In this document: positions 10,202 to 50,750 of the stretch, piece after piece
How positions within the stretch are numbered: position 1 is the first letter of the stretch
Layout: each line of letters begins with the position of its first letter
Assembly: GCA_964448285.1 (NCBI GenBank)
Contig: CAYUWG010000008.1
Coordinates: forward strand, 18,645 to 82,644
Direction: 5' to 3'
From: an uncultured Chromatiales bacterium
GTDB taxonomy: Bacteria > Bacteroidota > Ignavibacteria > SZUA-365
Length of the DNA: 64,000 nucleotides
Program-made: the position numbers and the translations under genes
The notes under the pieces: model-generated
What the model saw: only the letters and a program-made list of their open reading frames with translations
The model's database searches: none
What the model was told of the DNA's origin: nothing

Positions 10202-10202
10202 A

Positions 10203-30540: not shown

Positions 30541-30723
30541 GAAAGAAGATCTCCGTCCGTTGTTACCAGAACTTCGACAGAATAGACATGAATTCAAACA
30601 CCGAAATGCAACCGCGGACTTCTCCAACGGGCAGCTCAACTCTCGAGGTGTTAGATTGTTATCTCAAGTGCGAGCGAACGCACAAATCCGTAATCAGAAA
30701 TCCGTAATCCGTAATCCCCTCCC

Positions 30724-32394
30724 ATGTCAGACAATAAAATCATCTTCTCCATGATCGGCGTTGGCAAAGTCGTCCCGCCGAACCGATACATCCTCAAGGA
30801 CATCTACCTCTCGTTTTTCTACGGCGCGAAGATCGGCGTACTCGGTCTCAACGGCGCTGGGAAATCCACGCTGCTGAAGATCATCGCGGGGCTTGACCGC
30901 GACATCCTCGGCGAGATCACATCGGACAAAGGAATCACGTTCGGCTATCTGCCACAGGAGCCGGAGCTTGATCCAGGCAAGACCGTCCGCGAAGTGATCG
31001 AAGAGGGCGTGCAGGACGTCGTGAACGTCGTGAAGGAGTACGAAGCGGTGAACGCGGCCTTTGCAGAACCGGACGCGGACTTCGACGCACTGCTCGAGCG
31101 ACAAGCGAAACTGCAAGAACGGATCGACCATCTCGACGCATGGGATCTCGACAGCAAACTCGAAATGGCAGCCGATGCTTTGCGCTGCCCGTCGGGAGAA
31201 ACACCGGTGAATGTGCTTTCAGGCGGGGAGCGGCGTCGCGTCGCACTGTGCCGTCTGCTCTTGCAAAAGCCCGACGTGCTTCTCATAGACGAACCGACCA
31301 ACCATTTAGACGCGGAGTCCGTCGCGTGGTTAGAACAGCATCTTGCGAAGTACGAAGGCACCGTCATTGCCGTCACGCACGACCGCTACTTCCTCGACAA
31401 CGTCGCGGGATGGATTCTCGAACTCGACCGGGGCGAAAGGATTCCGTTCAAGGGCAACTACACTTCGTGGCTTGAACAGAAGCAGGAGCGCTTGCGCGTC
31501 GAAGAGAAGCAGGAGTCGAAACGGCAACGCATTCTCGCGCGCGAGTTGGAATGGGTGCGCATGAATCCCAAAGGCCGTCACGACAAGAGCAAAGCGCGCA
31601 TCGCGGCGTACGAAAAGCTTCTCACCGAAGAACAGGAGAAGCGCAACGAGGAGATGGAGATCTTCATTCCCGCAGGACCGCGACTCGGCGACGTCGTGAT
31701 CGAAGCGAAGGGCGTCTCGAAAGCGTTCGGGGACAGATTGCTGTTCGAGGGTTTGGACTTCTCGCTCCCACCCGGCGGCATCGTCGGCGTGATCGGTCCG
31801 AACGGCGCGGGTAAGACGACGCTCTTCCGCATGATCACGGGACAGGAACGTGCGGACGCGGGGACGTTCAAGATTGGCGAGACGGTGGCGCTCGGCTACA
31901 TCGACCAGAACAGACCGCTCGATGGGGAGAAGACGATCTATCAGGAAATCTCCGGCGGCGACGATCTCATTCGCGTGGGAAGCCGCGAGGTGAATGCGCG
32001 CAGCTACGTGGCGCGGTTCAACTTCAGCGGCAGCGACCAGCAGAAACAGGTGGGGCTGCTCTCCGGCGGCGAGCGCAACCGCGTCCATCTCGCGAAGATG
32101 TTGAAGGAGGGTCCGAACGTCCTCCTCCTCGACTAACCGACGAACGACCTCGACGTGAACACGCTCCGCGCGTTGGAAGAGGCGCTACTCAACTTCGCCG
32201 GATGCGCCGTGGTGATCTCGCACGACCGCTAGTTCCTCGACCGCATCGCGACGCACATACTCGCCTTCGAAGGCGACAGCCAGGTGCGCTGGTTCGACGG
32301 CAACTACGCGATGTATGAGAAAGACCGCAAGCAACGGTTGGGCATCGAAGCGGACAGGCCACACAGGATTAAGTACCGGGCGATGACGAGGTGA
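30724..32394 (+). pseudogene. ettA: ABC-F translational throttle EttA with two in-frame stop codons
   Basis: Two ABC cassettes are present (GLNGAGKST ... LSGGERRRVAL ... LLIDEPTNHLD; GPNGAGKTT ... [11 protein letters not shown]). The second Walker B reads LLLD-TAA-PTNDLD, with TAA at 32134-32136 where Glu is expected. HDR-TAG-FLDR has TAG at 32230-32232 where Trp is expected. The frame continues to the TGA at 32392-32394 with a canonical EttA C-terminus. Confidence 0.75.
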
Positions 32395-32536
32395 GAGGGA
32401 TAGAGTTGGCTCACTTTGAAATTATGCTGATAGCATTAACCCATCAGCATGAGTCGATAATGAAGACGAATTCCTTGAAATTATACGTTGCAATTCTCTT
32501 TAGCAGCGTGCATTTTTCCAATAAGGAGATGACCCA

Positions 32537-32743
32537 ATGAAATTCACAATAACCATATATCGCGATGAAGACGGCATGTTTATCGCCGAATGTCCTTCAA
32601 TTCCCGGTTGCATCAGCCAAGGAAGGACTGAGGAAGAGGCACAGTTGAACATTCAAGATGCCATCAAAGAAGCCCTTGAAGCTCGAGCTGAGTTGGGTAT
32701 GCCCCTTACGATTGCGACCAAACAAATCGATGTTGCAGTGTAG
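32537..32743 (+). CDS. hicB: HicB-family antitoxin
   Basis: MKFTITIYRDEDGMFIAECPSIPGCISQGRTEEEAQLNIQDAIKEALE (UPF0150/HicB fold). Its TAG stop overlaps the hicA ATG. Confidence 0.7.
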   Translation: MKFTITIYRDEDGMFIAECPSIPGCISQGRTEEEAQLNIQDAIKEALEARAELGMPLTIATKQIDVAV

Positions 32744-32971
32744 ATGCCGCCAGTTCCTCTTTTGCGCCCCTCGGAGGTCATCAAGATATTCGAGAAACTC
32801 GGATGGAGAGTAGTGCGCCAACGAGGCAGTCACATCATTCTCACCAAGACCGGACAGATTGCAACTCTGTCGGTTCCAAATCATGAACAGATCGCGCGTG
32901 GCACCCTACGCGGCTTGATCTCAAAAGCCGGATTGACCATCGAACAATTCCTCGAAGCATCTGGTCACTAA
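32744..32971 (+). CDS. hicA: HicA-family mRNA interferase toxin
   Basis: [26 protein letters not shown]....[23 protein letters not shown] is the canonical HicA/YcfA motif set. Confidence 0.75.
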
Positions 32972-33004
32972 CCTCTCGCCGTATTTACCCGCGCACCCGA
33001 AGCA

Positions 33005-33393
33005 ACGTGGCGCGGTTCAACTTCAGCGGGAGCGACCAGCAGAAACAGGTGGGGCTGCTCTCCGGCGGCGAGCGCAACCGCGTCCATCTCGCGAAGATGT
33101 TGAAGGAGGGTCCGAACGTCCTCCTCCTCGACTAACCGACGAACGACCTCGACGTGAACACGCTCCGCGCGTTGGAAGAGGCGCTACTCAACTTCGCCGG
33201 ATGCGCCGTGGTGATCTCGCACGACCGCTAGTTCCTCGACCGCATCGCGACGCACATACTCGCCTTCGAAGGCGACAGCCAGGTGCGCTGGTTCGACGGC
33301 AACTACGCGATGTACGAAAAGGACCGCAAGCAACGGTTGGGCATCGAAGCGGACCGGCCGCACAGGATTAAGTATCGGGCGATGACGAGGTGA
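33005..33393 (+). repeat. 389-bp perfect direct duplicate of the ettA 3' end (copy E2)
   Basis: Near-identical to 32006..32394. It carries the same TAA and TAG and ends at the same TGA. Confidence 0.9.
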
Positions 33394-33521
33394 TAAGTAT
33401 CTAACGGCTATGCGTTTCAGCGGCGCCGACGATCACCTACCGGCGGAGGTACCCCAGGCACCTGCGGCGTCCGCTGGAAAAGCTTGTTAGATTTTGCGGC
33501 ACACCTATCCTGTATTTGCCA

Positions 33522-34148
33522 TCAAAGCAACCCTACAAAGAAAGGGGTGTAGGAAAATGAAAAGACGGATCGACCTTCTCGCATATCCCATAGAAACTCC
33601 TTTAGCATGTCCGCCCACTCTGCCCAACTACGGTATGTTCCATGGTCCTGAATCCACTCACCAAGATGTGCCTCTTCGATCATCTGGACCGGTAGACCGG
33701 CATCGATAGAGGAGGGGTGCTCCAATAGTGGGACATCCATTACAATGTCCCCGACCTCCTCGGATACCGGGTGCAGATGACACCACAGCACCCGCGCCTG
33801 ATTGTTCAGATCGAATAGCGATGTCACGAGTGGCACGGCAGCCAAAACCGGGATGCTGAAGTGGTACCCTACATAGGTCGCTCTAAAGAGGGAGTGATTG
33901 AACTTAACCTGGATGTGCTCATCTCCTGTATCCAACACCTTGGGGCGTCGGGCGAAAATCGCGACGACCTTCAGAGTAATGCCATCACCACCCGCTACTC
34001 CGACGCGACTTCCCTCGCGACTGGACCAGTAGTAGAAGGGTAACGCACGCATACCCGCGCCACCAAGTGCCCAAACAGCTCTCGGGACGAGGAAGTACTC
34101 CACCGTCCGCTCGTTCATAAAGCCGATCCGTCTTCGTTGGCCCATCAC
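33522..34148 (-). CDS. hypothetical protein (4th gene of kinase operon)
   Basis: 208-aa ORF in GC-rich DNA, co-oriented with the upstream genes. No motif recognised. The start is uncertain (possibly the ATG 30 nt downstream). Confidence 0.4.
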   Translation of the reverse strand: MMGQRRRIGFMNERTVEYFLVPRAVWALGGAGMRALPFYYWSSREGSRVGVAGGDGITLKVVAIFARRPKVLDTGDEHIQVKFNHSLFRATYVGYHFSIPVLAAVPLVTSLFDLNNQARVLWCHLHPVSEEVGDIVMDVPLLEHPSSIDAGLPVQMIEEAHLGEWIQDHGTYRSWAEWADMLKEFLWDMREGRSVFSFSYTPFFVGLL

Positions 34149-34254
34149 GCCTACATAAATCTAACGCTCAGCATCAGAGGCGGCGCCCACCGCCGTCCGC
34201 TGCATGCTGTTGTTAGCCGGAAGATGCCGGTCAGTGTTATCGGGAATCTTTGGT

Positions 34255-35544
34255 TCACTGCAGGCTGGTCCAACGCCGTCGTAGTACCGGCCCTCGTTGC
34301 TTGTCCAGCATGGCGAGCGCCGCGCGGTTCACGTCGAGAGAGTCGGTGAAGTCCCGGTTGGCGCCGAGCACGCCATTCGAGCCGAGAGTGTGGAGCAGGT
34401 CCTCGGCGTCGTTGAGCGTCTGCTCTTGGGCCTGCCACGCCTCGTCGTACTCTGCCGCATTCAGTGCTTGCGCCTGGCCGCGAAGAGCGTGCAAGTAGTG
34501 GCGGAAGGCCGCCTGCTCAGAGAAGCGTACGGAGGACGGCTGCACTCCGCTGAACAACGGGTCAACATAGCCGCCGTCGAATTCAGACGGTGGCTTCATG
34601 AGATCGAGCACCCCCTGCTCGTAGGCCACGTCGAGGAACGGGATCTTGTATTCCGAGAGGGCCCACGGGCAGTAGTACCACGTCGCTCGGCGCCGGATCT
34701 CCTCTTCATAATCCTTGTTGAACTTCTCGGGCGGGAACGACCGCACGTTCATCCACGTCCCGGAGCAGATGGCATTCGCTCCTGCGACGTGCGAGACGAG
34801 CATCTGATGATTGCAATAGCCGAGGATCACCTGCGCGCCCGCAAGGCGCAGCCCAGCCGTCAAATCAAGGACGTGCGCGAGCCAGATGGCGTCCTGAACG
34901 AGGTAGTCGCCGTTCGGATGTTCGCAGACGATGTAATACCCGTCTGCCCTCCAGCGGGTGACCGCTTCCAGTAGCGCGGTGACCTGCTCGCGGTTTCGGG
35001 CAGAGTCAGCCCCCAGAGCGAGCGTCGAGTACAGCGGTTTGGAATCGCCAGCCAGGTCGCGCGCGGTCGTGAGAAACGACTCATGATGAGCAAGCCAGGG
35101 ATCATCAACGGGATCGGCGAGCATCCCGGGCAGGATGATGGCCTCCGTGCCAAGGTCTTCGTTCAGCTTGACGATCTTGCGAACAAGAGACTCCATCTCG
35201 GGTCCTTTGAAGAAGGATCCCGATGCGAAGTCGGCCGGCCAGAACTCGTGGGAGCATAGTCGCTCATGATCGGCGTGCGGGACATAGAACTGAGGGTCAA
35301 GCAGCGCCTTCCCGCCTTCAACCTCGGCCACGTCCTCAGCCAAGCGCCGGAGTTGCTTGTCGTTCAGGTCGCGAGGGCTCAAAACAACTGTACCTCCACC
35401 CCATTCCGTGAGAAGGTGGCGGCAGTGGTCCATCATCCCGAATCCGAACTGAAGGTGAAGCTCCATCAATGTCCTCCTCCCACGAAGGCGCTTCGGCAGG
35501 GTCCACCGCCGCATGAACATGCCCGCGTGAGCGTACAGCTCCAT
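34255..35544 (-). CDS. hypothetical protein (429 aa), translationally coupled to the kinase gene
   Basis: Its ATG at 35544 lies 1 nt after the kinase TGA (TGAcATG). The gene is GC-rich. No motif recognised. Confidence 0.45.
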   Translation of the reverse strand: MELYAHAGMFMRRWTLPKRLRGRRTLMELHLQFGFGMMDHCRHLLTEWGGGTVVLSPRDLNDKQLRRLAEDVAEVEGGKALLDPQFYVPHADHERLCSHEFWPADFASGSFFKGPEMESLVRKIVKLNEDLGTEAIILPGMLADPVDDPWLAHHESFLTTARDLAGDSKPLYSTLALGADSARNREQVTALLEAVTRWRADGYYIVCEHPNGDYLVQDAIWLAHVLDLTAGLRLAGAQVILGYCNHQMLVSHVAGANAICSGTWMNVRSFPPEKFNKDYEEEIRRRATWYYCPWALSEYKIPFLDVAYEQGVLDLMKPPSEFDGGYVDPLFSGVQPSSVRFSEQAAFRHYLHALRGQAQALNAAEYDEAWQAQEQTLNDAEDLLHTLGSNGVLGANRDFTDSLDVNRAALAMLDKQRGPVLRRRWTSLQ

Positions 35545-35545
35545 G

Positions 35546-36409
35546 TCATTGGACTCCCTCCCGGTCGCAGAGGTCCTTGATCCAATCGTAAGCCTCGCGT
35601 GCCGTCTGGCACCTATGGACGGGGTTCGGTTGTGCCAAGGTTGCCACGAGGTCCGCGAAGTCGCGCGAGATGGGGGCTACTAAGCGCGGAAGTTGATTCT
35701 TGGCAACACGAGCCATGATCTCGAAACCGTCCCGAGCGCCGTCGCGGTGAGGATTGCGGCCGGTAGCGGCCTCATAGAGCGTCACGCCCAGCGCGAAGAG
35801 ATCGGCGCGGGCGTCGATCTCGGGCTTGTCATTGCGGCATTGCTCGGCGGGTGCGTAGCCGATTGTTCCCCAGCCTGCGGGAGCGGCGGTCGCCGTAATA
35901 GAGTCGAGGTCGAGGTGGCGTGCGAAACCGAAGTCGATGAGCCAGAATCCGCCTGCTGGATCGACGATGATGTTCGCGGGCTTCACGTCTCGATGAACGA
36001 TGTGGACGGCTTCCGCTGCGACCAAGGTCTCCGAGACGTGCAGCGCCAACCGTAGGAGTTCGGGACAGGCGAGCGGAGCAACACGGATGCGGCTGCTCAG
36101 GACCTCTCCCGGAATGCGCTGCTCACGGAACCAGACGATCGTTCCTGTATTCCCGGTGAGTTGCCCGTGCTGGAAGATGCGCGGCATCCGAGCAGCATGG
36201 ACCCTGGTAGCTGCCTCCAGCTCCCTCACCGTTCTTGCGGGATCCGTCCCCGGGTGCATGAGCTTGACGACAACCCCGCCGTCAGTCGCGTGCTGCGCAG
36301 CGAAGACCTGCTTCTGACCTCCCGCTGCAATCGCCTGGAGGTCGGTGAGGTCCGGGAACTGGTGTGCGAGCCAAACCGGATCTACCTGGGAGGGGATCGG
36401 CATAATCAT
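35546..36409 (-). CDS. Hanks-type serine/threonine protein kinase (kinase domain only)
   Basis: VVVKLMHP (VAIK-like Lys), catalytic loop HRDVKPANIIV, DFG (LIDFGFARHL) and APE-like GTIGYAPAEQ. There are no additional domains. Its start overlaps the upstream gene's stop as ATGA. Confidence 0.75.
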   Translation of the reverse strand: MIMPIPSQVDPVWLAHQFPDLTDLQAIAAGGQKQVFAAQHATDGGVVVKLMHPGTDPARTVRELEAATRVHAARMPRIFQHGQLTGNTGTIVWFREQRIPGEVLSSRIRVAPLACPELLRLALHVSETLVAAEAVHIVHRDVKPANIIVDPAGGFWLIDFGFARHLDLDSITATAAPAGWGTIGYAPAEQCRNDKPEIDARADLFALGVTLYEAATGRNPHRDGARDGFEIMARVAKNQLPRLVAPISRDFADLVATLAQPNPVHRCQTAREAYDWIKDLCDREGVQ

Positions 36410-37185
36410 CGGTTGCTGTGGTCCTTGGAGGCACGCCATGCAAGGTCATTGACAACCCACGAGGCGTACGAGCGTGGCAAGCGCGCGGTGGAAGCGCCCC
36501 ATTCCCTGATTCCATCTTGCCCGGGAGATAGTACTCCGATCCCGAGTCGTTGCGCGTCTCGGACCTGCTCCTCGGAAACGCGGGGCACGAGGACGTAGGA
36601 CTTCGATGCGAACCAGGTGTTCAGCCGTGCTTGGTTCAGCACGTCTGCCCACTTCCCGATTTTCGCCTCAACAGCGATAATCTTGGTCGCCGCGAAGGTG
36701 CGTTCGAAGGCGCACGGGAACCAGGCACGTCCGGCGGGTCGAACGAGCCCGGCACCGTGCAACCGTTCAATCGAGTATCGGGCGAAACGGGATCCGAAGC
36801 AGTCCTCAAGTTCTGAGTGGGCGGCTCTACGACGCTGGAAGACGTATTGCATGAGCCGCAGGTCGTCCGGTACGAGATCCATGCGCGATTCGTCCCAGTT
36901 GGCGGTGCGGGCGTCGCGCCACACCACGATGACGAGATCAGGGAACCCGGACTCTAGGCCGGGCTCGCGGAGCACCGTCACACGGCTATCCGGGGCATGC
37001 ACAAGCGGCATTGCGAAGATGAAACCATCCACGAGTTCCTGCTCTGGACCCCGCAAGGTGCGACGGAAGACGATGCCCTTCGGCGCCGAGTCGCGGTCAA
37101 CGATCGTTGGTCTCATGGTGGAGTGCACGTTGGTGATTCCCTCCCGTTCAATCACGCGTACTCGGTCCCTTCGTCCGGCCAACAA
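36406..37185 (-). CDS. hypothetical protein with possible PD-(D/E)xK-like signature (first gene of kinase operon)
   Basis: GFPDLVIVVW ... KIIAVEAKIGKW resembles the D / ExK strands of the restriction-endonuclease fold, with an unusually long spacer. The annotated start uses TTG; the first ATG is 23 codons downstream. Confidence 0.35.
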   Translation of the reverse strand: MLAGRRDRVRVIEREGITNVHSTMRPTIVDRDSAPKGIVFRRTLRGPEQELVDGFIFAMPLVHAPDSRVTVLREPGLESGFPDLVIVVWRDARTANWDESRMDLVPDDLRLMQYVFQRRRAAHSELEDCFGSRFARYSIERLHGAGLVRPAGRAWFPCAFERTFAATKIIAVEAKIGKWADVLNQARLNTWFASKSYVLVPRVSEEQVRDAQRLGIGVLSPGQDGIREWGASTARLPRSYASWVVNDLAWRASKDHSNR

Positions 37186-37600
37186 TAATTAGGCTGATCC
37201 GCATAAACCGCCGGTTTCTCATTTTCTTTCCGCATAAGACTCCATAGAATTATTTGTTCTTCGTCGCATCATGCCTCGACCGTTCGATGTATGTAATGTC
37301 GGGTTTGCAATTCATCATACATTTGCATCATCAGCTTGGGTCGTTTCGCTTGGGTCGTCATGTTGCTATTGTTGTCGCAAGATTACTTGGCACAACGATA
37401 GGAAATCAAAGCCTCAAAGTCAAGAAATGCGGGAAAATACTTTCTACTCCTTCATCTCGCACATACTTGCCTTCGAAGGAGACAGTCAGGTGCGCTGGTT
37501 CGACGGCAACTACGCGATGTACGAAAAGGACCGCAAGCAACGGTTGGGCATCGAAGCGGACAGGTCGCATCGGATCAAGCACAAGGCGATGATTGATAAC
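37181..37600 (+). repeat. composite repeat R1: 74-bp R-left element + IntI N-terminal remnant (30 codons, minus strand) + attI-like spacer with direct repeats + ettA 3' copy
   Basis: The minus strand reads [30 protein letters not shown]-stop and matches the start of the IntI-like ORF at 41880. The spacer carries TTGTCGCAAgattacTTGGCACAA. Then comes ettA-like coding ([42 protein letters not shown]) including GTTGGGC. Confidence 0.8.
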
Positions 37601-37622
37601 CGGGTTCGTTGTGTTGTACTGG

Positions 37623-38732
37623 TTAAACGCCATGGTCTTTCTCCGGCTCTGCGTATGTATCCGGTTGTTTCGGTAGTGCTGCGATCGCGGCGGCGATTTC
37701 CCGGAGATCGTTAACCAACGAACGAACGACAACATCTTTTTCCTCTCCAACTGGGACCTCCAACGAGATGGCAAAATCGTGATCGCTGGCTACGGTAAGG
37801 ATGCCTTTTTTAGTTACCCACGATTCAATCAGCGGGCGCACTTCCTGTCCCCGGCCGAAATCATCATCAGCGAAGACAAGCCAGAGAGGTGTTGTTCCAT
37901 GTGTCTTCCAGAGACCAAAGTGAATCCCGAACCATGCGCCTGCGCTACCTGAGCTTTGAGTCCCCATCACTCTCACATAACGCCCAATTCGCTCCCACGA
38001 CGCTTGCGGACGAAGTCCGCTGATGAGGAGAACCTTCTCGGTTACTCCAAGATCTGTTGTTGCCTGAATGATTGCGCCAAGTTGAAGAACAAAAGCTGAT
38101 GTGCGTTGATCTGTGATCTCGACTCGCGAAACTGGAGCGAAGGCATCTGAGTCTGCCGTGTCACAGAGAGCACGTAATTGGATGAGGTCTCCAATGGTGG
38201 TTGGAGCGCTGATGCACTCGTACTCCAATACGGACAGGACATTCTCCCAAGATGTGAGCGCCAGAATAGGACCAAGTTGTGTATCTGCTGAACGTGCTAT
38301 AGCGACAGCAGCAACACGCTCGGTTGCGGGGATTCCCTCGACTTCAAGTCTCCTGCGCAATTCCCGCCACAGAGTCTGTTCACGTGCGGCCGGACCGACG
38401 ACGAGAAGAACCGTTGGCTGCTGGTACGTTGCAAGTTGCTTCAGGTACGAAACCGGTTGCTTGTCTGTCAGCCCCGCCCAGAACTTGTTCTCCACGAAAA
38501 CGCGTGGTTGATTGTCGGAGAATCCCCACAGATCCGGACGAATCGTTCCTTCGGTTTGCTGAGTCTTGAATCGCAACGACGGGAGTTCTGGGGCAACGCC
38601 TCGAAGAAGCTTCATTATACCTCCTCGAGCGGCTTCGCTCGATTCGAGAATGTATGCAAGCGCATCGGTCGCTACGTCTTCATTCACATTGGAAAACCGC
38701 TTCTGGATGATATGGCTGAGTACAGTCTGCAT
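37623..38732 (-). CDS. hypothetical protein with PD-(D/E)xK nuclease motif
   Basis: [23 protein letters not shown] gives D, then 12 aa, then ExK with hydrophobic strands, the classic restriction-endonuclease-fold core. Confidence 0.4.
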
Positions 38733-38741
38733 CTAATCGAG

Positions 38742-38939
38742 TTAATCATGCTCCTCAACGCCATACGCGTTTGCCAAACTCTTTTGGGACAACTCCAACC
38801 AGGCATTCTGTTCTTCGTCAGACTGCTCAGGAAAAACGATCACGAGAAGCCGAGAGTGTGGTTCTATTTTGAAGGGTTCATCCAACCGTATCTGCTCACC
38901 ATCGAAATGGGCCGCTAATGCTACTGTTTTCATTGACAT
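38742..38939 (-). CDS. small antitoxin-like protein (65 aa)
   Basis: Short acidic-C-terminal protein (EQSDEEQNAWLELSQKSLANAYGVEE) lying 9 nt upstream of the PD-(D/E)xK gene. Its size and composition resemble small type II antitoxins. The family is not identified. Confidence 0.3.
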   Translation of the reverse strand: MSMKTVALAAHFDGEQIRLDEPFKIEPHSRLLVIVFPEQSDEEQNAWLELSQKSLANAYGVEEHD

Positions 38940-39003
38940 TTTCTCCTTAGGTGATAGTATCTATCTGTCTAATGAATTCCAGACCAACTCGCTGGCATAA
39001 TAG

Positions 39004-39216
39004 TCAGGCTGCAACCTGAATGTAGGACGAGTACGCCGATGGTTCAGGGGCGTCGTAACCCTCCATTCGCAAGCCTTCGAGATGAAATTCGATGGCTTCC
39101 TGAATATTTCGTTCGACTTCCTCTTTCGTTCTACCGGTAGAGCCACAACCCGGCACGTCCGGAGAAAATGCAGAGTAACCCGTACGTGTCTTTTCAACGA
39201 CGATAAGAAATTTTTT
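39004..39216 (-). CDS. HicB-like antitoxin (orphan)
   Basis: MKKFLIVVEKTRTGYSAFSPDVPGCGSTGRTKEEVERNIQEAIEFHLEGL is a UPF0150/HicB fold. No HicA partner is adjacent. Confidence 0.6.
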   Translation of the reverse strand, partial: KKFLIVVEKTRTGYSAFSPDVPGCGSTGRTKEEVERNIQEAIEFHLEGLRMEGYDAPEPSAYSSYIQVAA

Positions 39217-39278
39217 CATGGTTTCAATCCAGCTTGTTTGAGGATGTTCTGAGAACACGTCAGACCATTGTGATACGT

Positions 39279-39872
39279 TCAAGCTGCTTCAGCGTGCAGT
39301 CTCAAACCAAGAGCCCCAATCACCTTGAGGATGGTATCGAAATCAGGAGTACGTTCACCGGACAATGCCTTATAGAGACTTTCGCGTGAAAGACCAGCGT
39401 CACGCGCAACCTGTGCCATGCCACGTGCACGGGCAATATCTCCAAGCGCCTTTGCGATAAATGCGGCATCACCATTGGCTTCTTCCAGACATGCTTCTAA
39501 GTAAGCCGCCATTTCCTCAGGCGTTCGGAGATGTTCGGCGACATCATATCGAGTGGTTTTGGTTTTTCTCATCATGGGCTCCAACAAGTTTCGCGCGAGG
39601 CTACGAGCTGTCTTGATGTCGGTGGCTTGGGTACTTTTATCACCGCCTGCCAGCAGAATTACCATCTCGCGTCCGCGCTTTGTGAAATAAACCCGATAAC
39701 CGGGACCGTAATCGATCCGCAACTCGGAGACGCCATCACCAACTGGTTTGACATCTCCAGCATTTCCTGCCGCCAAGCGCTCAACTCTGGATAGGACACG
39801 CGCTCGTGCCTGAATGTCGCTCAGTCCATCGAGCCACTGCACGAAATTCTCTGTTTTGCGAATCTCAATCAC
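39279..39872 (-). CDS. in-frame fusion of RelE/Gp49-like addiction-module killer and HTH antidote
   Basis: Residues 1-100 (MIEIRKTENFVQWLDGL...GPGYRVYFTKRGREMVILLAGGDKSTQ) match the putative addiction-module killer family. Residues 105-197 (MMRKTKTTRYDVAEHLRTPEEMAAYLEA...GLSRESLYKAL) match the cognate antidote family. The junction is cccATGATGAga. Confidence 0.6.
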   Translation of the reverse strand: MIEIRKTENFVQWLDGLSDIQARARVLSRVERLAAGNAGDVKPVGDGVSELRIDYGPGYRVYFTKRGREMVILLAGGDKSTQATDIKTARSLARNLLEPMMRKTKTTRYDVAEHLRTPEEMAAYLEACLEEANGDAAFIAKALGDIARARGMAQVARDAGLSRESLYKALSGERTPDFDTILKVIGALGLRLHAEAA

Positions 39873-39937
39873 GGAAGGAATGTAGCCTAACGGCTACACA
39901 TTGTCAAATGATTATTCTACGCTCAGAGACTACTTGG

Positions 39938-40051
39938 GTCGCCCGCTGGCTCGACGGCAACTACTCCTATGTACGAGAAAGACCGTAAGCAGCGCTTAGG
40001 CATCGAACCGGACGGCCGCTCAGGATTAAGAATCGGGCGATGACGAAGTGA
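39938..40051 (+). repeat. diverged ettA 3'-end copy E3
   Basis: Encodes RWLDGNYSYVRERP?KQRLGIEPDGRSGLRIGR-stop; ends at TGA 40049-40051. It is the most diverged copy. Confidence 0.6.
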
Positions 40052-40247
40052 CAAGCTTCTAACTGCCCTGCGTGTAAGCCGCGCCGGTATGATATTTTGA
40101 TTGAATGCGAGATCTTAGTTGAGTCGACTTAACACGCGGGTTAGGCGTCTCATCTCGCCATAAGATTTTCATGCCAAACCCGCGATCGTCGGCTATTCGA
40201 AGTCTTAGCGCCTACGTCCCGTATGTAAGGTCTAATCACTGCCGATG

Positions 40248-41351
40248 TCATCGTTTTTCACTTCCTGAATGTATTTCCAATAGACTCTTTCTATGAAGAA
40301 TACCAAAGCGTTGCCAAGCATATATATAGTCTCCAACAACTTCTATTCTAGCAATCTCATCAACTTGAATACCTGAGTCCGATTCTGTTCCAACTGGAAT
40401 CCAGCTTTTGCCGCTGTTTGTTGAAACAAATACTCCAATATTGGTGCCACAGAATATGTAAATTCCGAATGTCGCAATCGAGCTTACAAACGCAACCCTG
40501 TCGGATAATCCTATAGAACATCTAACCCAACTCTCTCCATTGTCGGAAGATATGTATAATCCATCATTGGTTCCAGCAAAAAGCACGTTTCCCAATGCAG
40601 CCAGTGAATTAATCATCCGGTTATATAGTCCGGAATTAACTCCAATCCAGTTTTTTCCACCATCCCTGGATAAGAATATCCCATTGTCCGCTCCGACAAA
40701 TATAAGATTTTCGCACCTAAGGACAGTGTTGACTCTACTGCTATACTCCTTCAATGTGCCAAATCCTTCGTCACCAGAAAAGAATACAACGCGTTTCTCG
40801 TCCCATCTTTTAATATCATCTTTTACCGCCATATACAATCTTCCTTCATATGTGACAGCATATATTTCATTATTGAATACATATATGTGCCGTATACCGC
40901 TTTTGGAGAGCACGCTATCTGGAGATATATTGGATGGAGTAGTTCGTTCTCGCTCTGAGGACATATTTACGCTGATCGAATAACTGATAGCTTGCCACCA
41001 GTTCCATCCCCTGTCTAAAGAGATAAACAGACCCTTCTGTGTTCCGCAAATCAAAATCGAATCTATCGTGATAAACCGTGTAATACCTACATTGGTAGGT
41101 AATTTTCCGCCGTATTTCCATTCTGAAAGAAAACCTGGTTGGCTTGGAATTGAGGGTGCGCCATTTTCATTCGCAGCGAATATTCCATGAGAATGAGCAA
41201 CCACCAACAACCTACCGGATTGCCGAATATCAACGATAGGCCCACCCCGTGCCATAGTCAACTGCCATTGCGAAATTGCTTTCGAATATGGTGCAGTGAA
41301 TACGATTGCGGCAATTATAACTGCTGGTTTTACTGCTAATCTACAATACAT
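40248..41351 (-). CDS. secreted BNR-repeat beta-propeller protein
   Basis: Signal peptide, then BNR motifs [32 protein letters not shown]. The gene is AT-rich (about 40 % GC) and its start overlaps the intI remnant's stop. Confidence 0.55.
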
Positions 41352-41880
41352 AGTGCGGTAAATTCTGATTTATTAATTCAATCGGGCTTCGTGCTGCCGA
41401 ATGCCCCCTGTTAAGTACATGGGTGTAAATCATCGTGGTTTTAATATCGCGGTGGCCTAAAAGCTCTTGGACAGTCCGAATGTCATAACCGCTTTCGAGC
41501 AAGTGTGTCGCGAACGAATGCCGGAACGTGTGACAGGTTACCCTCTTCGTCATGCCTGCTTTCATTGCGGCGATCCGCGCGCGAATGAGTTCGCACAGAT
41601 CACCGACCGCTAGTCCGATAACGTTGCGATACAAAAAGAGTAGAGCAGAGAGAGCTTGATTCTGTGTCGAAGCGCTTACTTTTTCCTCAACAGCAAGATG
41701 TGTCAGAAAAGCATTGATCTCAGGTTCCGACATCTCTTGCGGATGGCGCACATCATTGAAATGAACGTAGCGTTTCACCAAAAAGCAGTACACCTCCTCC
41801 GTACGATGGCTGTAATGTCGAACCTGCAATGCTTCATGCATTTGCATCATCAGCTTTGGTCGCTTCGCTTGGGTCGTCAT
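41341..41880 (-). pseudogene. intI: integron-type tyrosine recombinase (IntI-like) with a large internal deletion
   Basis: The N-terminal 100 aa ([15 protein letters not shown]...[31 protein letters not shown]) match the IntI core-binding domain. The ORF then joins directly to box II / C-terminus [43 protein letters not shown]. The catalytic Arg/Lys/His patch region is missing. Total length is 179 aa versus about 320 expected. Confidence 0.7.
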
Positions 41881-42085
41881 ATTGCTATTGTTGTCGCAAG
41901 ATTACTTGGCGCAACGATAGGGAATCAAAGAGTCAATGTCAAGAAATACCCGAAAAAACTTTCTTACTCACTTCATCTCGCACTTTCTCGCCTTCGAAGG
42001 CGACAGTCAGGTGCGCTGGTTCATCGGCAACTACGCGATGTATGAGAAAGACCGCAAGCAGCGTTTAGGCATCGAAGCGGACCGT
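41881..42085 (+). promoter_or_regulatory. attI-like region of R2: direct repeats TTGTCGCAA-6 nt-TTGGCGCAA, then ettA 3' arm to the GTT core
   Basis: It lies immediately upstream of, and divergent from, the IntI-like start. Two 9-bp direct repeats sit about 20 bp from the ATG. The ettA-like arm ([35 protein letters not shown]) ends shortly after GTTTAGG. Copies of the same layout occur in R1, R3 and R4. Confidence 0.5.
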
Positions 42086-42122
42086 CGGGTTCGCCCTGCT
42101 TTAAGTCGGCACGGCGCGGTCG

Positions 42123-42742
42123 CTATTCACGGGGCCACTTCCGGAGCGCTGCTTCAAAGCAGACATTGAGGAACTGCTCCACGATATCGATCACTGCAAC
42201 GACGAGCTTTGAATCAGCGAGTAGGGCGTCCACGACAACTGGACCCAAGGCTTTCCGCCGAATGAACGACTGGACCGCTCCTTTACCAGCGAAGTCAGCG
42301 AGTTGACCGCCGTTGTGAACAAGGCAGTTACGAACCTCAACAACACCCCGGACATCTTCGAGCAACTTTGACGGAAGGGCCAGGTCCATCCGGGCGACCT
42401 TCTGAGCATAGACAAGGAAGCGATCGAGCCACGAACCCCGCAGCTCGCGGAGGGACAGCTGTAGGTTCTCGGCATCACGAAGGCTCTGCGCGAAGTCTCT
42501 GAGATCTCGCTCAAGGAGACCAACTGTGACGACAATCACCGAGCTGTAGAGAATGCTGGGAAACGGCTCCTCGTAGAGGTAGGAATCCTCGTTCCCGAAG
42601 GCATCGTGCTTCCCAACCAAGCGCGTCGCTGATTCCGCGAGGAACTCCTCGACCGTGGTCAGATAGGCGCGAAGCTCATCAACGTGGATCAAGGCATCAA
42701 CGGAGCAGCCGAAGAACTGAAGACCGGGTCCGATGCTAGCCA
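42123..42742 (-). CDS. Abi_2 (AbiD/AbiF)-like HEPN-domain protein
   Basis: Rx4H motif EVRNCLVHNGG near the C-terminus in a predicted helical protein. The likely start is MASIGPGLQ at 42742. Confidence 0.4.
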
Positions 42743-43503
42743 TGTCCTCTCTTGTGTCGCCTAACGTTGTGCCGCTCAGCCGCGAGCGGCGGCCCATTGC
42801 TTCCGCACTCGCCCGGCGCCCGCCCGCCGCTCGTCTGCTGCAGCGGCGTGTTATGCTTCCTCTCGGCTTTCTCACCAGCTCTCTCGACGATCTTTAGGAT
42901 ATCGCTGGCGACAACGATTCTTTCGAACGCCGACAGAAAGTCCATGTCGACATCCCGGTGCGAACAGGGATTCTTGTAGTAGCCGAATGCGCCAGCGACG
43001 TATTGACACAGAGCCTCCCTTTCGGCCTTTGGAAGCGCCGGGTCGGTCAAGGGCCCGTTCTCAGGGTGGAAGGCCCTGCGGATTAGAGTCACGCCAATTT
43101 CGTCGGCACTGGACTTGGTCCACTTCCTGATCCCAGTCTCTACCGCCTTAAAGGCCTTGAGGACGGCACTTTCGTAATCGCCCGAATTCAACATGTGAAG
43201 GGAAACCTTGGCTATTCGAGGATGGATGTACATCTCCGGTACGAGTACGTAATCCCGAACAACGCTCCTAAACTCGCGCTCAAGGAACCTGAACCCGACC
43301 TTCGTTGGGTAAAAGGTTTCGTCGCCTTCGTCATCGTACCCACGTTGGTATTGACGTATATCTATGTGAGTCTCTGGACTAGCTTTGTACTTGACGCGCG
43401 AAAAGCGAACCGGCCGATATCCCCCGGCGTTCGCCTCGGCAATGACGTGCTGATACTCGATCTTTGCTTCGACTGCGCTCTTGTCCTTTGTCTTCCTCTT
43501 CAT
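42736..43503 (-). CDS. TIGR02391/Hypoth_Ymh-like HEPN-related protein
   Basis: The C-terminal 130 aa show AFKAVETGIRK ... LIRRAF ... YVAGAFGYYKNPCSHRD ... FLSAFERIVVASDILKIV. This matches the conserved FxAVE...RNPxAH-type blocks of that family. The likely start is ATG 43503 (MKRKTKDK). Confidence 0.45.
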   Translation of the reverse strand: MKRKTKDKSAVEAKIEYQHVIAEANAGGYRPVRFSRVKYKASPETHIDIRQYQRGYDDEGDETFYPTKVGFRFLEREFRSVVRDYVLVPEMYIHPRIAKVSLHMLNSGDYESAVLKAFKAVETGIRKWTKSSADEIGVTLIRRAFHPENGPLTDPALPKAEREALCQYVAGAFGYYKNPCSHRDVDMDFLSAFERIVVASDILKIVERAGEKAERKHNTPLQQTSGGRAPGECGSNGPPLAAERHNVRRHKRGHG

Positions 43504-43528
43504 CGCCCATTCTCTCCGCGGTAGGCCC

Positions 43529-43602
43529 AACAATAATTAGGCTGATCCGCATAAACCGCCGGTTTCTCGTTTTCTGTCCGCATAAGACTCCATAGAATTA
43601 TT
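43529..43602 (+). repeat. solo copy of 74-bp R-left element
   Basis: aacAATAATTaggctgatCCGCATAAaccgccggtttctcgttttctgtCCGCATAAgactccatagAATTATT has a 7-bp terminal inverted repeat and an internal direct repeat. It abuts the start of the Ymh-like gene. Confidence 0.7.
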
Positions 43603-43682
43603 CTACATAGTTGTCATGACCGGCAGCAAAAAGAGGCGCGAGGTAGGCGCGACGCTTTTTGCTGTCCGTGTTGATGGCGCTG

Positions 43683-44006
43683 TTAACGTGCATTTGCGCC
43701 CAACATCGTTTGAAATGGTGCGGAGGGAAGGAATCGAACCTTCCGCGTTCTCTCTTGGAAGGAATGTATTTGCTCACACAACCATCTCTCGCTTGGGTTG
43801 GAGTTTTTTTCCACCAGGCTCCGCAGGAACGCAGCTCCGCACCAAACACATGCCACGACAAAATGAAGTATGGCGTTTGAGTTTTTCATGATTACCTCCT
43901 TCGCAGTTTCAATGAAGCTGTTTACGGAATGGTAGATGTCCAACCCAAACGAGATTTCGATGTGTGCCTCAATACAAACCTCTTTACCCAAGCTCGTGTG
44001 ATTCAT
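43683..44006 (-). CDS. hypothetical small protein between two R-left copies
   Basis: 107-aa ORF with an internal hydrophobic segment (MKNSNAILHFVVACVWCGAAFL). Coding status is uncertain. Confidence 0.25.
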   Translation of the reverse strand: MNHTSLGKEVCIEAHIEISFGLDIYHSVNSFIETAKEVIMKNSNAILHFVVACVWCGAAFLRSLVEKNSNPSERWLCEQIHSFQERTRKVRFLPSAPFQTMLGANAR

Positions 44007-44026
44007 GGTTGCTGCACGCTAACAAT

Positions 44027-44384
44027 AATTAGGCTGATCCGCATAAACCGCCGGTTTCTCATTTTCAGTCCGCATAAGACTCCATAGAATTATTTGTTCT
44101 TCTTGGCATCATGCCTCGACCGTTCGATGTATGTAATGTCGGGTTTGCAATTCATCATACATTTGCATCATCAGCTTTGGTCGTTTCGTTTGGGTCGTCA
44201 TGTTGCTATTGTCGTCGCAAGATTACTTGGCGCAACGATAGGGAATCAAAGAGTCAATGTCAAGAAATACCCGAAAAAACTTTCTTACTCACTTCATCTC
44301 GCACATACTCGCCTTCGAAGGCGACAGTCAGGTGCGCTGGTTTGACGGCAACTACGCGATGTATGAGAAAGACCGCAAGCAACG
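44027..44384 (+). repeat. composite repeat R3 (R-left + IntI 5' remnant + attI-like spacer + ettA arm truncated exactly at the GTT core)
   Basis: Same layout as R1. The ettA-like sequence ...gaccgcaagcaacG stops at 44384 and is followed by unrelated sequence (actagtccgtg) where the other copies have GTTGGGC. Confidence 0.8.
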
Positions 44385-44429
44385 ACTAGTCCGTGCCAGG
44401 TGCTGCGGTTTTTATCCGGGTGCTCAACT

Positions 44430-44792
44430 TCATTTATCCGGGATGCGTTCAGAGATGCGAATGCGGCCGGGTTGGACAACGATAAAGCAGCCCTCAATCA
44501 TCGTACGATGTGTATCAATAAATTCCACGACGGTTCGAACCATGGCTCTCCGGGCTTTGGCCGGAAATCGGATGAAAATGACGCCAGATGATTTGGCAAC
44601 GCTGGCAAAAACCAGTTGTCCAAAGTCTTTATCTTCAGTCAAAAGAATACGGGATTCCGCGAGGGTAAGCTCAATGATCGCGTCATCGGTCGCTCCAGGT
44701 CTTTCGTCGCAGACCGCAACGACATCGTGACCCATGGTACGTAATGCATGTACAAGGGAGAAATCGCAGTTCTCATCCGCAAGGAAACGCAT
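44430..44792 (-). CDS. DUF5615 PIN-like toxin-family protein
   Basis: [30 protein letters not shown]...[14 protein letters not shown] matches the [11 protein letters not shown]5615 consensus. Confidence 0.6.
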
Positions 44793-44807
44793 CCGTCTCG
44801 AAACAGT

Positions 44808-45044
44808 CTAATTCGAGGGTCCCAACAAAACAGTTTCCTCATGCGCCAGAGTATCAGCGGCATACATGGCAGCTGCACGGATATCCTCCGGAGTCAGACC
44901 GGGGTATGCGTCAAGGAGATCGTCCTCAGTGGCGCCTTCGCCGAGCTTGCGTAGGATAAGCTCCACTGTGATGCGCGTTCCCCGGATCACCGGTTTTCCC
45001 AGCATGATCTTGGGATTCATTTCGATTCTGCTTGAGATAGTCAT
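44808..45044 (-). CDS. DUF433 antitoxin-family protein
   Basis: GKPVIRGTRITVELILRKLGEGATEDDLLDAYPGLTPEDIRAAAMYAA matches the DUF433 consensus. It is paired with the DUF5615 gene 15 nt downstream. Confidence 0.6.
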   Translation of the reverse strand: MTISSRIEMNPKIMLGKPVIRGTRITVELILRKLGEGATEDDLLDAYPGLTPEDIRAAAMYAADTLAHEETVLLGPSN

Positions 45045-45154
45045 TGTCTTACCTCCTGTTTCGAGTATAGTTTAACCAATCACTTCAACAGAACAAAAAG
45101 AGAGGGTGTGCGGATAGTCGTTATTGTCCCGTGGTGAACATGCAGGTGTAACAG

Positions 45155-45273
45155 ATAGTCAGGTGCGCTGGTTCGACGGCAACTACGCCATGTATGAGAA
45201 AGACCGAAAGCTGCGCTTAGGCATCGAAGCGAACATTCCGTATCCGATCAGGTATCGCGCGATGTCAAGTTGA
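45155..45273 (+). repeat. diverged ettA 3'-end copy E4
   Basis: Encodes [38 protein letters not shown]-stop. Confidence 0.65.
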
Positions 45274-45414
45274 GAGGAAAACATCGCAGACATACTCGCC
45301 TCAATCATAGTCAGGCACCCGATGGTTTAGGGGCATCGTAACCGTGTACCCAATGCAAAAGAAGCAAGCGCCAGATATCCCGGCAGTGTCGGATGAATGT
45401 TCGGTTACCCAGCG

Positions 45415-45738
45415 TCAGGGAGCCGAATATCTCCAGAGCATCTTGATTGCCAAGGTGATGGCCAGGAAACACAACAGCCAGAAGACGATTGGCGCAGAAG
45501 CTCCCTTGAAGCGGACTCCTGCGACGTCGAATTCGATCGGTCCGGAAGAGATCTGCAGAACGATGGAAACGAAGAGCGCTCCCAAGCCGGCCATGGGCAA
45601 GCCGACGATCACCGGGAAGTTCTGGCGAATCAACTCGGTCCAAAAGGTGCTTTTCGAAGCATCGAAGGTAAGCAGCCCCACGAGCGCCGCAATGCCGAAC
45701 AGGGAAAGCGCTACCGCGACGACCCAGTTCATAGTCAT
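45415..45738 (-). CDS. small hypothetical membrane protein
   Basis: Three predicted TM helices (WVVAVALSLFGIAALVGLL, FPVIVGLPMAGLGALFVSIVL, IVFWLLCFLAITLAI). The start is uncertain (ATG near 45738). Confidence 0.3.
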   Translation of the reverse strand: MTMNWVVAVALSLFGIAALVGLLTFDASKSTFWTELIRQNFPVIVGLPMAGLGALFVSIVLQISSGPIEFDVAGVRFKGASAPIVFWLLCFLAITLAIKMLWRYSAP

Positions 45739-46044
45739 CCTCAGTTTCTGGTCGCTTTGCTTCCGGTCGATGTCGGGACCTGTGGTCGAGAGAATGTCGC
45801 TGTCGTCCCGGTGTTGGAGACCGGGTCCGGGCGAGGGTTCGGAAGAAGGATGCACGCGTGTTCCTTTCTTGATGAAGTTATATATAAATTTTAGTGGCAT
45901 TTCCGTCCCCAATGAACGTTCCGGCCGACCGCACAAAATAAAACGAACTCTTCATATCGCCGAATTCGATTCGCCGTTACGCAAACCATAAAACATATTT
46001 CCTCTAATGGCTATACAACGGCAATAAAGCAAGTGTAAGTATAT

Positions 46045-46200
46045 CAGGTTTCCGTACATCGTGATTGATCGTCCATAGACAATTGGTTCGTGTATTCGTA
46101 TCATCAGTTTCTGTCTTTTCGTTTGCGTTGTCATGCTGCTATTGTTGTCGCAAGATTGCTTGTCGCAACGCCAAGGAAACCGAAGATTCAGTGTCAAAGG
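46045..46200 (+). repeat. R4: degenerate IntI 5' remnant plus direct repeats TTGTCGCAA-6 nt-TTGTCGCAA
   Basis: The minus strand reads MTTQTKRQKLMIRIHEPIVYGRSITMYGNL..., matching the IntI N-terminus. The spacer carries two perfect 9-bp direct repeats. No ettA arm follows. Confidence 0.6.
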
Positions 46201-46219
46201 ATACGTGACCAGTCACCTC

Positions 46220-46663
46220 TCACCCCTGTATCTCAGGCTCTACAAGCTTCGCAAGTTGTTCGAGTGATTCCTGCCAGCCTAAGTAGCACATCTCCGGTGG
46301 GATGACGTCGGGCACTCCTTCCTGTGCGACGTTCAGCTCCGTGCCGCACGAAACTGCTTTCAGCGAAACGGTCACCTGCATCACGTCGGGCAAATTCGGG
46401 TCATCGAAAACGTCGGTGTGTCGGATGCGTTCGTTCATTATCAATTCGAGATATTCACCACCGAATGAGTGGCTCTGTCCCGTCGTGAAGTTCGTGAAGG
46501 ACATCTTGTACGTCCCGCCGACCTTCGCATCGAGATGATGGATGGTGCCGGTGAATCCGTGCGGCGGGAGCCACTTGCACATCGCGGCCGGATCGAGAAA
46601 CGCACGATAGACTTTTTCGGGTGCGGCCTTGATAACGCGGTGGAGTCGGATGGTGTAGCTCAT
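46220..46663 (-). CDS. SRPBCC/AHSA1-like domain protein
   Basis: 147 aa with the N-terminus IRLHRVIKAAPEKVYRAFLDPAAMCKWLPP, typical of Activator-of-Hsp90-ATPase-homolog-like SRPBCC proteins. Confidence 0.55.
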   Translation of the reverse strand: MSYTIRLHRVIKAAPEKVYRAFLDPAAMCKWLPPHGFTGTIHHLDAKVGGTYKMSFTNFTTGQSHSFGGEYLELIMNERIRHTDVFDDPNLPDVMQVTVSLKAVSCGTELNVAQEGVPDVIPPEMCYLGWQESLEQLAKLVEPEIQG

Positions 46664-46884
46664 AGGGTTGACCTTTCTTGAGATAGTTTGTGATGAGATG
46701 AGATGTGCTCACTGCGAGTAAGGTGAGACGAAGATATCCGATACAGGTGGTGATGCCAAGCGAGAGAATTCATGCAAGGCGCATTTCGATGTGTTCCTAA
46801 GACCTGTCATGTTTGTTTTCTCCGGCAGACTTCTTACCATGCAATCCGTAAATACTACCTGTTCCACAAAAAAAGGAGGATAGC

Positions 46885-47244: not shown

Positions 47245-47247
47245 CGT

Positions 47248-50595: not shown

Positions 50596-50750
50596 TCATC
50601 ATCGTATGTTGATCTGAGACGGCATGGCGGAACGTGATATTGAAATGAGTTACGAGATTGAAAGGTTGAATGATTTGCTGCTCATTTCGTACAAGATAGC
50701 AAACCACCACCTCATCGAAATACATTCACTCTGATACAACGACGATAAAG

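Follow-up and report, generated by a model that had tools for sequence, protein, structure and literature searches.

Copies of the ettA 3' end in a 14-kb pile of integrons

We analysed a 64-kb stretch of DNA (the window; contig CAYUWG010000008.1, positions 18,645 to 82,644) from a metagenome-assembled genome (MAG). Its host belongs to a poorly sampled lineage of the FCB (Fibrobacterota, Chlorobiota and Bacteroidota) group, a placement based on the Por_Secre_tail proteins found in the MAG. Behind the housekeeping gene ettA lies a pile of about 14 kb that holds at least four worn-out integrons together with toxin-antitoxin modules. Seven ettA 3' ends of 80-390 bases each, here called tails t1 to t7, separate the integrons and modules of the pile, which are numbered M1 to M7. 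The tail family was found with a repeat finder, and six-frame translation recovered the EttA C-terminal peptide in every copy; a preliminary description of the locus, made from the letters alone, had already recognised all seven. When the tails are aligned, as that description proposed, copies t2-t7 are 79-96% identical to the native end t1.

30724-32394, plus strand: ettA, 556 codons, 88% amino-acid identity to EttA proteins
32006-32394, plus strand: tail t1 (native), the last 389 nt of ettA
33005-33393, plus strand: tail t2, from the repeat finder and translation
37458-37595, plus strand: tail t3, with a degenerate attC remnant behind it (about 37596-37630)
39938-40051, plus strand: tail t4, with two frameshifts
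41979-42085, plus strand: tail t5, ending about 30 nt short of the stop codon, beside an R''-like box
44300-44384, plus strand: tail t6, ending about 55 nt short of the stop codon
45155-45273, plus strand: tail t7, the most diverged copy, reaching the stop codon

Like t7, tails t1, t2 and t4 extend to the stop codon. All tails have lineage-specific codons in common that are absent from the nearest foreign ettA genes, so their similarity is not due to chance. They begin at four different points, -389, -135, -119 and -114 relative to the ettA end, and three of the four classes of tail-start junction lack G|TT; the junction between M1 and t2 can be read as a G|TT crossover, although none is a convincing one. 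Similarity to t1 shows no steady fall from left to right (93% for t6 against 85% for t3), and the tails therefore do not form a simple left-hand insertion series with the oldest copy to the right. The succession envisaged in the preliminary description, in which each insertion pushed the previous gene tail rightwards, is thus not borne out.

A short motif (CAGACATACTCGCC...ATAGTCAGGC) at 45287-45345, just past the t7 stop codon, resembles the start of an ettA tail, and it is also similar to 38980-39009, next to the gene of M3 that is HicB-like. This may be an eighth tail in an advanced state of decay, or a motif that the two places share for other reasons; the similarity is too weak for it to be counted as a tail. 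The long EttA matches of proteins P0121 and P0122 are N-terminal ABC duplications, irrelevant to the tails.

Integron integrase remnants

Four remnants of a recombinase gene, intI-1' to intI-4', lie on the minus strand within units u1 to u4, in which the beginning of the gene is joined to its promoter region.

37272-37361, minus strand: intI-1' remnant, starting at 37361; 30 codons, then a stop
37362-37457, minus strand: intI promoter/operator region of unit u1
41341-41880, minus strand: intI-2', 179-residue integron integrase with an internal deletion
41881-41978, minus strand: intI promoter of unit u2, with TTGACA-17-TATCGT at 41942-41914 and the TTGTCGCAA/TTGGCGCAA repeats
44112-44201, minus strand: intI-3' remnant, starting at 44201, with the same 30-codon truncation as intI-1'
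46084-46219, minus strand: unit u4, an intI-4' stub (start 46134) and promoter region, without an ettA tail and abutting the AHSA1 gene
46220-46663, minus strand: AHSA1/SRPBCC gene, the right-hand chromosomal flank

The best preserved of these, intI-2', matches the TIGR02249 integron integrase model with 214 bits (E 3e-63). Its score falls short of the cutoff for full-length proteins, 265, since a deletion has taken about 145 residues from the middle, the IntI-specific insertion included. About 150 nt of intI-2' have roughly 73% nucleotide identity to intI1. By comparison, intI-4' keeps only about 16 matching codons. Full-length relatives of 311-314 residues, about 73% identical, carry the IntI-specific ALDRKYPNA..W.WQWVFP insert and are annotated as integron integrases by their sources. 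The remnants are most probably those of true integron integrases, in agreement with the integron-class recombinase and the four IntI-like remnants of the preliminary description, and all four copies are dead.

That description had also placed four of the tails in a composite unit of intI, spacer and ettA arm. Only t3, t5 and t6 stand in such a unit; the fourth unit is the tail-less u4. The two 9-bp direct repeats that it reported in the spacer are present (TTGTCGCAA/TTGGCGCAA, 15 nt apart), but they lie between the -10 box and the start codon of intI and hence are not an att feature, the spacer being the intI promoter region. Units u1 and u3 are truncated at the same point, with 93% identity over 367 nt. 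Likewise, u2 and the corresponding unit of a metagenomic contig, L081, have the same internal deletion and are 93% identical beside different cargo. One identical promoter-tail junction is found in u1, u2, u3 and L081, and so it was formed once.

Many public integron-integrase genes (proteins P0003-P0118) encode products of about 170-250 residues that have lost the same central region, with different endpoints. We rejected a conserved 'mini-IntI' family of about 200 residues, as the deletion endpoints differ between database members. These short forms suggest recurrent decay rather than a conserved mini-protein, and suggest that intI inactivation in environmental bacteria is recurrent and possibly selected.

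Minus-strand integron architecture

An attC covariance model was built from 14 attC sites in arrays downstream of related intI genes (loci L043, L078 and L020) and three candidates from the window. It replaced a strict RYYYAAC...GTTRRRY scan, which returned one attC only, and a looser duplex scan, which was noisy. The alignment has canonical arms, two bulged bases and 15 covarying pairs out of 23. Across the 64-kb window the model finds four attC sites, which score 57, 56, 36 and 32.5 bits. Every one is a minus-strand site within the island, and the rest of the window has none. Three copies of a 76-nt repeat, D6, accompany them.

33396-33495, minus strand: attC-A, 57 bits on the minus strand and 11.5 on the plus; R' box GTTAGAT 5 nt past the t2 stop codon
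34156-34221, minus strand: attC-D, 66 nt, not in the training set; 32.5 bits, E 7e-6
40052-40149, minus strand: attC-B, R' box beyond the t4 stop codon
42756-42859, minus strand: attC-C, from the covariance model
37179-37254, minus strand: D6a, attI-like 76-nt repeat
43527-43602, minus strand: D6b, attI-like repeat in mid-array, no adjacent intI
44019-44094, minus strand: D6c, attI-like repeat

Each attC lies downstream of a minus-strand open reading frame (ORF), and the arrays are therefore read in the same direction as intI. The top strand of attC is the intI strand, as in L043, L078 and L020, which is the geometry of 'inverted-integrase' integrons. The cargo behind ettA is a tandem stack of decayed integrons of this kind, with intI, the candidate attI and the cassettes all on the minus strand. 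The integron modules are M2 (attC-A and attC-D, with a kinase), M4 (attC-B, with a BNR protein) and M5 (attC-C, with two HEPN-like proteins), and the integrase-less toxin-antitoxin modules M1, M3 and M6 are interleaved with them. In t2 and t4 alike, the attC R' box is found 5 nt past the stop codon of ettA, and the t2/attC-A and t4/attC-B junctions are homologous; behind t3 this arrangement recurs in degenerate form.

Each D6 copy contains two TTATGCGGA direct repeats, and identity between the copies ends exactly after ATTATTG|TT. D6a and D6c lie downstream of intI stubs, in a position matching the attI of L043, in which intI is followed by about 280 nt, then GTTAGGC and cassettes. From this likeness we regard D6 as a candidate attI. 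D6 also has perfect 7-bp terminal inverted repeats (AATAATT/AATTATT).

The preliminary description pictured mobile elements with an IntI-like integrase and an att site that mimics the ettA end. This is not supported, as the integrases come with an attI-like site of their own and with attC, and the modules are whole integrons. We also considered the ettA tail as part of an attC hairpin and rejected it: there is no complementary arm, and the covariance model has no match on the tails.

Movement by the integron machinery is a separate matter. Recombination of attC x attC by IntI might have transferred 'mega-cassettes', each comprising an antisense ettA tail and a whole platform, with the tails as passive passengers. 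Read in minus-strand order, t2, t3 and t4 indeed come directly after an attC R' box or its remnant, and the blocks between R' boxes are formally cassettes. However, t5, t6 and t7 have no intact attC beside them, the tails do not have G|TT at their far ends, and an IntI active in trans would be needed, there being none in the window. Passenger tails would moreover decay neutrally, contrary to the codon-position bias and pN/pS described below. We consider this route very improbable.

Codon-position bias in the tails

Among the tails, synonymous divergence (pS) is 0.22-0.39 and nonsynonymous divergence (pN) 0-0.14, with a pN/pS of about 0.2. Codon position 3 accounts for 19 of the 31 variable columns (p = 0.0013) and, in the tails with the common promoter-tail junction, for 15 of 24 (p = 0.003). 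The four-gamete rule is violated and the haplotypes are mosaic. The divergence lies mainly at third codon positions, a pattern that displaced fragments could not have acquired by decay where they lie. The tails must therefore have undergone repeated exchange with working ettA alleles, and we regard them as fossils of functional gene ends from different alleles; a signature of purifying selection is still visible in the displaced ends. Such a derivation from working alleles in turn points to recombination within the ettA end as the means of repeated acquisition. Since platforms were propagated although they carried identical inactivating lesions, propagation did not need a cis-encoded integrase. 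The repeated accretion of unrelated modules at the ettA end, as put forward in the preliminary description, is upheld by the third-position bias, the mosaic haplotypes, the GC content of the modules and the cargo of L081.

The same data bear on an origin entirely in place, in which 'ettA tail + integron' was duplicated once by an illegitimate event and then amplified in tandem by unequal crossing-over, followed by cassette turnover and decay, without any foreign ettA ends. The one promoter-tail junction indicates a single origin, the platforms are tandem and co-oriented, and the tail-less u4 resembles an original copy. Decay in place should, however, hit the codon positions equally, whereas the position-3 bias and low pN/pS are seen even among displaced tails. 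Furthermore, the tail types differ in their start points and downstream sequences, the modules range in GC from 0.44 to 0.60, and the integrase-less modules are left unexplained. In-place amplification is accordingly, in our judgement, unlikely.

Related loci

The structure is lineage-specific, being seen in this MAG and in one strain that is 98.4% identical; the unit is seen in the window, L081 and L097 only. Contig L097 (SRR24941436), which has 98.4% identity to 44325-51772, preserves the order AHSA1-u4-M7-t7-M6-t6; in L081, a contig of that same sample, the genes next to a u2-like unit are different ones. The two contigs suggest that the right-hand part is stable and the interior variable. 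A third contig, L088 (SRR5011273), is 100% identical to 38335-41922, across t4.

Of 80 genome loci with a related intI, 79 have no ettA tail, and ettA is adjacent in L043 only. There, at positions 7885-11260 of a Planctomycetia MAG, an intact intI in the same orientation follows a full-length ettA after 178 nt, and behind it come an attI (GTTAGGC) and at least five attC cassettes. The ettA gene stands in sense direction upstream of intI, a geometry that differs from the window. This adjacency may be a coincidence, the chance expectation being roughly 5% for one case among 80 loci. The closest full-length intI genes (L098/L099) have no ettA tail. The ettA-targeting family of IntI elements proposed in the preliminary description was not found, L043 being the one adjacent locus of the 80.

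The closest ettA genes (L082-L085; EttA 88% identity) have no integron downstream, and their loci are not syntenic with the window. They do not supply the empty site with which the preliminary description wished to compare the locus, and no other was found; a clean one is not obtainable because the 483-residue neighbour of ettA has no homologue above 35% identity except itself. Searches for exact matches to this neighbour and to P0001, another protein of the MAG, also returned nothing. A scan of Joint Genome Institute (JGI) metagenomes with the operator sequence of the unit gave no matches, and a metagenome scan with the tail peptide gave only distant ettA genes (61-65% identity) with no integron. 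Viral contigs gave no matches. Plasmids showed only generic intI1 similarity with no record covering the unit, nor was a circular form seen, so that the circular or extrachromosomal copies suggested earlier did not turn up. A literature search for integron and ettA found no relevant paper.

In a site-specific origin, integrative elements with an IntI-class recombinase would have inserted at ettA through an ettA-mimicking att, pushing the tails to the right. The composite unit of intI, promoter and tail does recur, three times in the window and once in L081 beside other cargo. All tails keep the segment around GCTGGTTCGAC, which is like the attC L'-R' arm of related integrons; the M1/t2 junction can pass for a G|TT crossover, and intI adjoins ettA in L043 too. 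On the other hand, the attC R' boxes of the window read GTTAG, not GTTCG, M1, M3 and M6 have no integrase, and the intI genes bring their own attI-like site and attC cassettes. The L043 geometry and the absence of tails from the closest full-length intI and from 79 of the 80 related loci also count against such elements, as do the four tail starts, three of their junction classes lacking G|TT, and the propagation of units with identical inactivating lesions. We hold insertion of this kind to be quite unlikely. Catalysis of the tail-linked stacking by IntI is itself improbable, because dead platforms were propagated, the four tail starts have no convincing G|TT, and related intI genes elsewhere are not linked to ettA in this geometry.

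Reliability of the assembly

The native ettA contains two in-frame stops, a TAA at 32134-32136 that replaces the Walker-B Glu and a TAG at 32230-32232 that replaces the Trp of SHDRWF. Both recur in t2 (33133-33135 and 33229-33231). They lie inside a tract of 284 nt (32032-32315) over which t1 and t2 are 100% identical, while the ends around the tract have diverged, by about 10% in the 61 nt that follow it. This pattern may be a signature of gene conversion or of a collapsed assembly, and the stops may likewise be an artefact of assembly or gene conversion, the native gene being intact. The apparent inactivation of ettA is not to be trusted on the assembly alone, the 389-nt t1/t2 pair being its weakest point.

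Could the whole arrangement be an artefact, strain variants with different DNA behind ettA having been chained through the shared tail? What speaks for this is that the sequence comes from a MAG, that Logan contigs are interrupted at the tail repeats, and that t1 and t2 have the identical tract with the same stop codons. Yet every displaced tail is physically joined leftward to the end of a module, and so the module-tail junctions must exist in reads. Typical reads are longer than tails t3-t7 (85-138 nt), and each of these tails is marked by variants of its own. In addition, L088 spans t4, and L097, from a different sample, spans t7 and M6 and runs into t6. Of the explanations considered here, this is the one to which we assign the least probability.

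The GC content jumps at ettA, from 0.48-0.52 upstream to 0.60 within the gene, and the nearest EttA homologues are in genomes of 63-66% GC. Logan contigs L094 and L095, from two other samples, stop 8-10 nt before the ettA start codon (window 30714-30724). The contig ends and the GC jump hint that the whole ettA gene is a zone of recombination or replacement.

Proposed recombination anchored in the ettA end

The best fit to these results is homologous, or homology-facilitated illegitimate, recombination anchored in the end of ettA. In the ancestral state there would have been an ordinary inverted-integrase chromosomal integron, with AHSA1, intI promoter, intI, attI and cassettes with attC on the minus strand, and with the last attC about 5 nt past the stop codon of a convergent ettA. 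This order is probable because the t2 and t4 attC junctions are homologous and t3 has a degenerate version; the tail-less u4 fits the original platform. The conserved 3' end of ettA would then have served repeatedly as a homologous anchor for the entry of foreign DNA from related lineages, bringing whole small integrons and toxin-antitoxin modules. One illegitimate event, joining ettA at about -135 to the end of the intI promoter region, would have placed a module between direct ettA-tail repeats. At any ettA tail, modules flanked in this way could loop out and reinsert or be acquired through homologous exchange, either unequal or one-sided, and further entries would have joined at -389, -119 and -114. 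With every event ettA would have received a fresh functional end, the older end staying behind as a fossil. The role of IntI would have been limited to cassette capture at attI and attC inside the modules, and with all four intI genes dead the array would now be frozen except for host recombination.

Taken as a whole, the explanation that the stacked integrons and modules entered through recombination anchored in the ettA 3' end is one towards which we lean, with only modest confidence, and several points weigh against it. The recombination pathway is one that we infer from its products. Tails that are 10-20% diverged over just 85-135 nt are poor RecA substrates, and the 389-nt t1/t2 repeat with its identical tract may reflect collapse in the MAG assembly. 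Standard integron reactions do not explain D6b in mid-array. The covariance scan gave the four attC sites over the window but none in M3, M6 or M7; the custom model is narrow, so attC of another type could be missed there, and it finds no sites in L098/L099 either. The collections, which hold no close relatives, yielded neither a circular form nor an empty site or a donor locus.

A more far-reaching version, in which whole integron platforms are mobile modules that home to the ettA 3' end, strikes us as doubtful. Homing could proceed by efficient homologous capture, or else the duplicated ettA tail could serve as a portable site for a trans-acting recombinase, which might be IntI, working at the GCTGGTTCGAC/palindrome segment. 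If true, integrons could spread and stack between lineages without transposons or plasmids.

Cargo of the modules

32537-32971, plus strand: M1, hicB (32537-32743) and hicA (32744-32971); no integrase, no attC
33522-34148, minus strand: M2 cassette ORF of 208 residues, no assigned function
34255-37185, minus strand: M2 three-gene cassette encoding 429 residues, a Ser/Thr kinase (35546-36439, PD-T4-6-like) and 259 residues
37623-39872, minus strand: M3, a 369-residue ORF, a 65-residue ORF, a HicB-like gene (39004-39282) and a Gp49-toxin/HTH-antitoxin ORF (39279-39872); no integrase
40248-41351, minus strand: M4 cassette ORF, BNR/Sortilin-like
42123-42743, minus strand: M5 cassette ORF, HEPN-like, 206 residues
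42736-43533, minus strand: M5 cassette ORF, Hypoth_Ymh (HEPN-family); the listed ORF reads through attC-C
43683-44006, minus strand: ORF of 107 residues between D6c and D6b
44430-45044, minus strand: M6, DUF5615/PIN-like toxin (44430-44792) and DUF433 antitoxin (44808-45044)
45274-46083: M7, unannotated ORFs with no family match

The island is rich in toxin-antitoxin genes and predicted defence genes: hicBA, the HicB-like gene, the Gp49/HTH ORF, the PIN(DUF5615)/DUF433 pair, the PD-T4-6 type kinase (E 2e-40) and the two HEPN-like genes. This clustering of several toxin-antitoxin and anti-phage-type genes, as judged from family matches, agrees with the defence-island character given to the locus in the preliminary description. 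Its account of the cargo is matched for the toxin-antitoxin systems, the kinase, the HEPN-like/Ymh proteins and the BNR protein, but not for a PD-(D/E)xK protein, which we did not find. The very different GC contents that it reported for the modules are confirmed by the range given above.

The 197-residue ORF at 39279-39872 on the minus strand joins Gp49/HigB-like toxin and HI1420/HTH antitoxin domains in a single frame, with the same gene call in L088, and may be a fused toxin-antitoxin pair.

Relation to known systems

The locus combines a chromosomal integron with island accretion at the 3' end of a gene. Integrons with an 'inverted integrase' are sedentary chromosomal integrons, found for example in Treponema denticola and also in Planctomycetota and Chlorobi. 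As in that group (PMC3575428), intI, the candidate attI and the cassettes are co-oriented, attC has R''/L''/L'/R' arms and two bulged bases, toxin-antitoxin and defence cassettes are present, and intI is decayed. In contrast, the window has at least four tandem platforms, each preceded by a fragment of a housekeeping gene and with integrase-less modules between them, and has neither a single long array nor an intact intI. The locus also resembles the clusters of attC sites lacking an integrase (CALINs) and the degenerate integrons defined by IntegronFinder (PMC4889954), in that attC clusters lie beside integrase pseudogenes; here, however, the attC sites are widely spaced, with one or two per module, and the platform remnants are reiterated with ettA tails.

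With islands that accrete at tRNA, tmRNA or protein-gene 3' ends, the logic invoked in the preliminary description, the locus has in common the direct repeats of the target 3' end, the restored frame and the heterogeneous modules. It lacks an element-encoded active integrase and a fixed crossover core. Unlike tyrosine-integrase islands it has no dedicated island integrase, its only recombinase being the integron integrase with attI and attC; the repeats vary in length and start point without a common junction core, and inactivated units were propagated. Rfam and tRNA scans gave no match inside the island.

Homology-facilitated illegitimate recombination, or one-sided anchoring during transformation, likewise leaves a conserved anchor, a variable other end and foreign DNA beside the anchor, but repeated single-anchor stacking of whole integrons was not found described in the literature searched. 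Transformation-driven shuffling of cassettes in chromosomal integrons is among the matters dealt with in PMC12614218.

In the window, several complete, already inactivated platforms have apparently been transferred or acquired as whole blocks, together with the end of a highly conserved neighbour gene. Chromosomal integrons are regarded as sedentary, that is, as single platforms changing cassette by cassette. If the explanation by recombination in the ettA end is true, whole integrons with their defence and toxin-antitoxin cargo would be exchanged between related lineages by ordinary recombination in a conserved gene, which would explain the origin of multi-integron loci and of integrase-less attC clusters. 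The locus would then be a natural 'fossil record' of ettA alleles, which could be used to date or order acquisitions once more genomes of the clade exist.

Neighbouring genes

Outside the tail array, just upstream of the gene next to ettA, an AbiEi-like/AbiEii toxin-antitoxin pair of the abortive-infection type lies at 27514-29038. The wider region is flanked by two paralogous hybrid histidine kinases of about 1100 residues (Reg_prop/Y_Y_Y type), at 20762-24055 and 47248-50595, which have about 74% nucleotide identity in parts.

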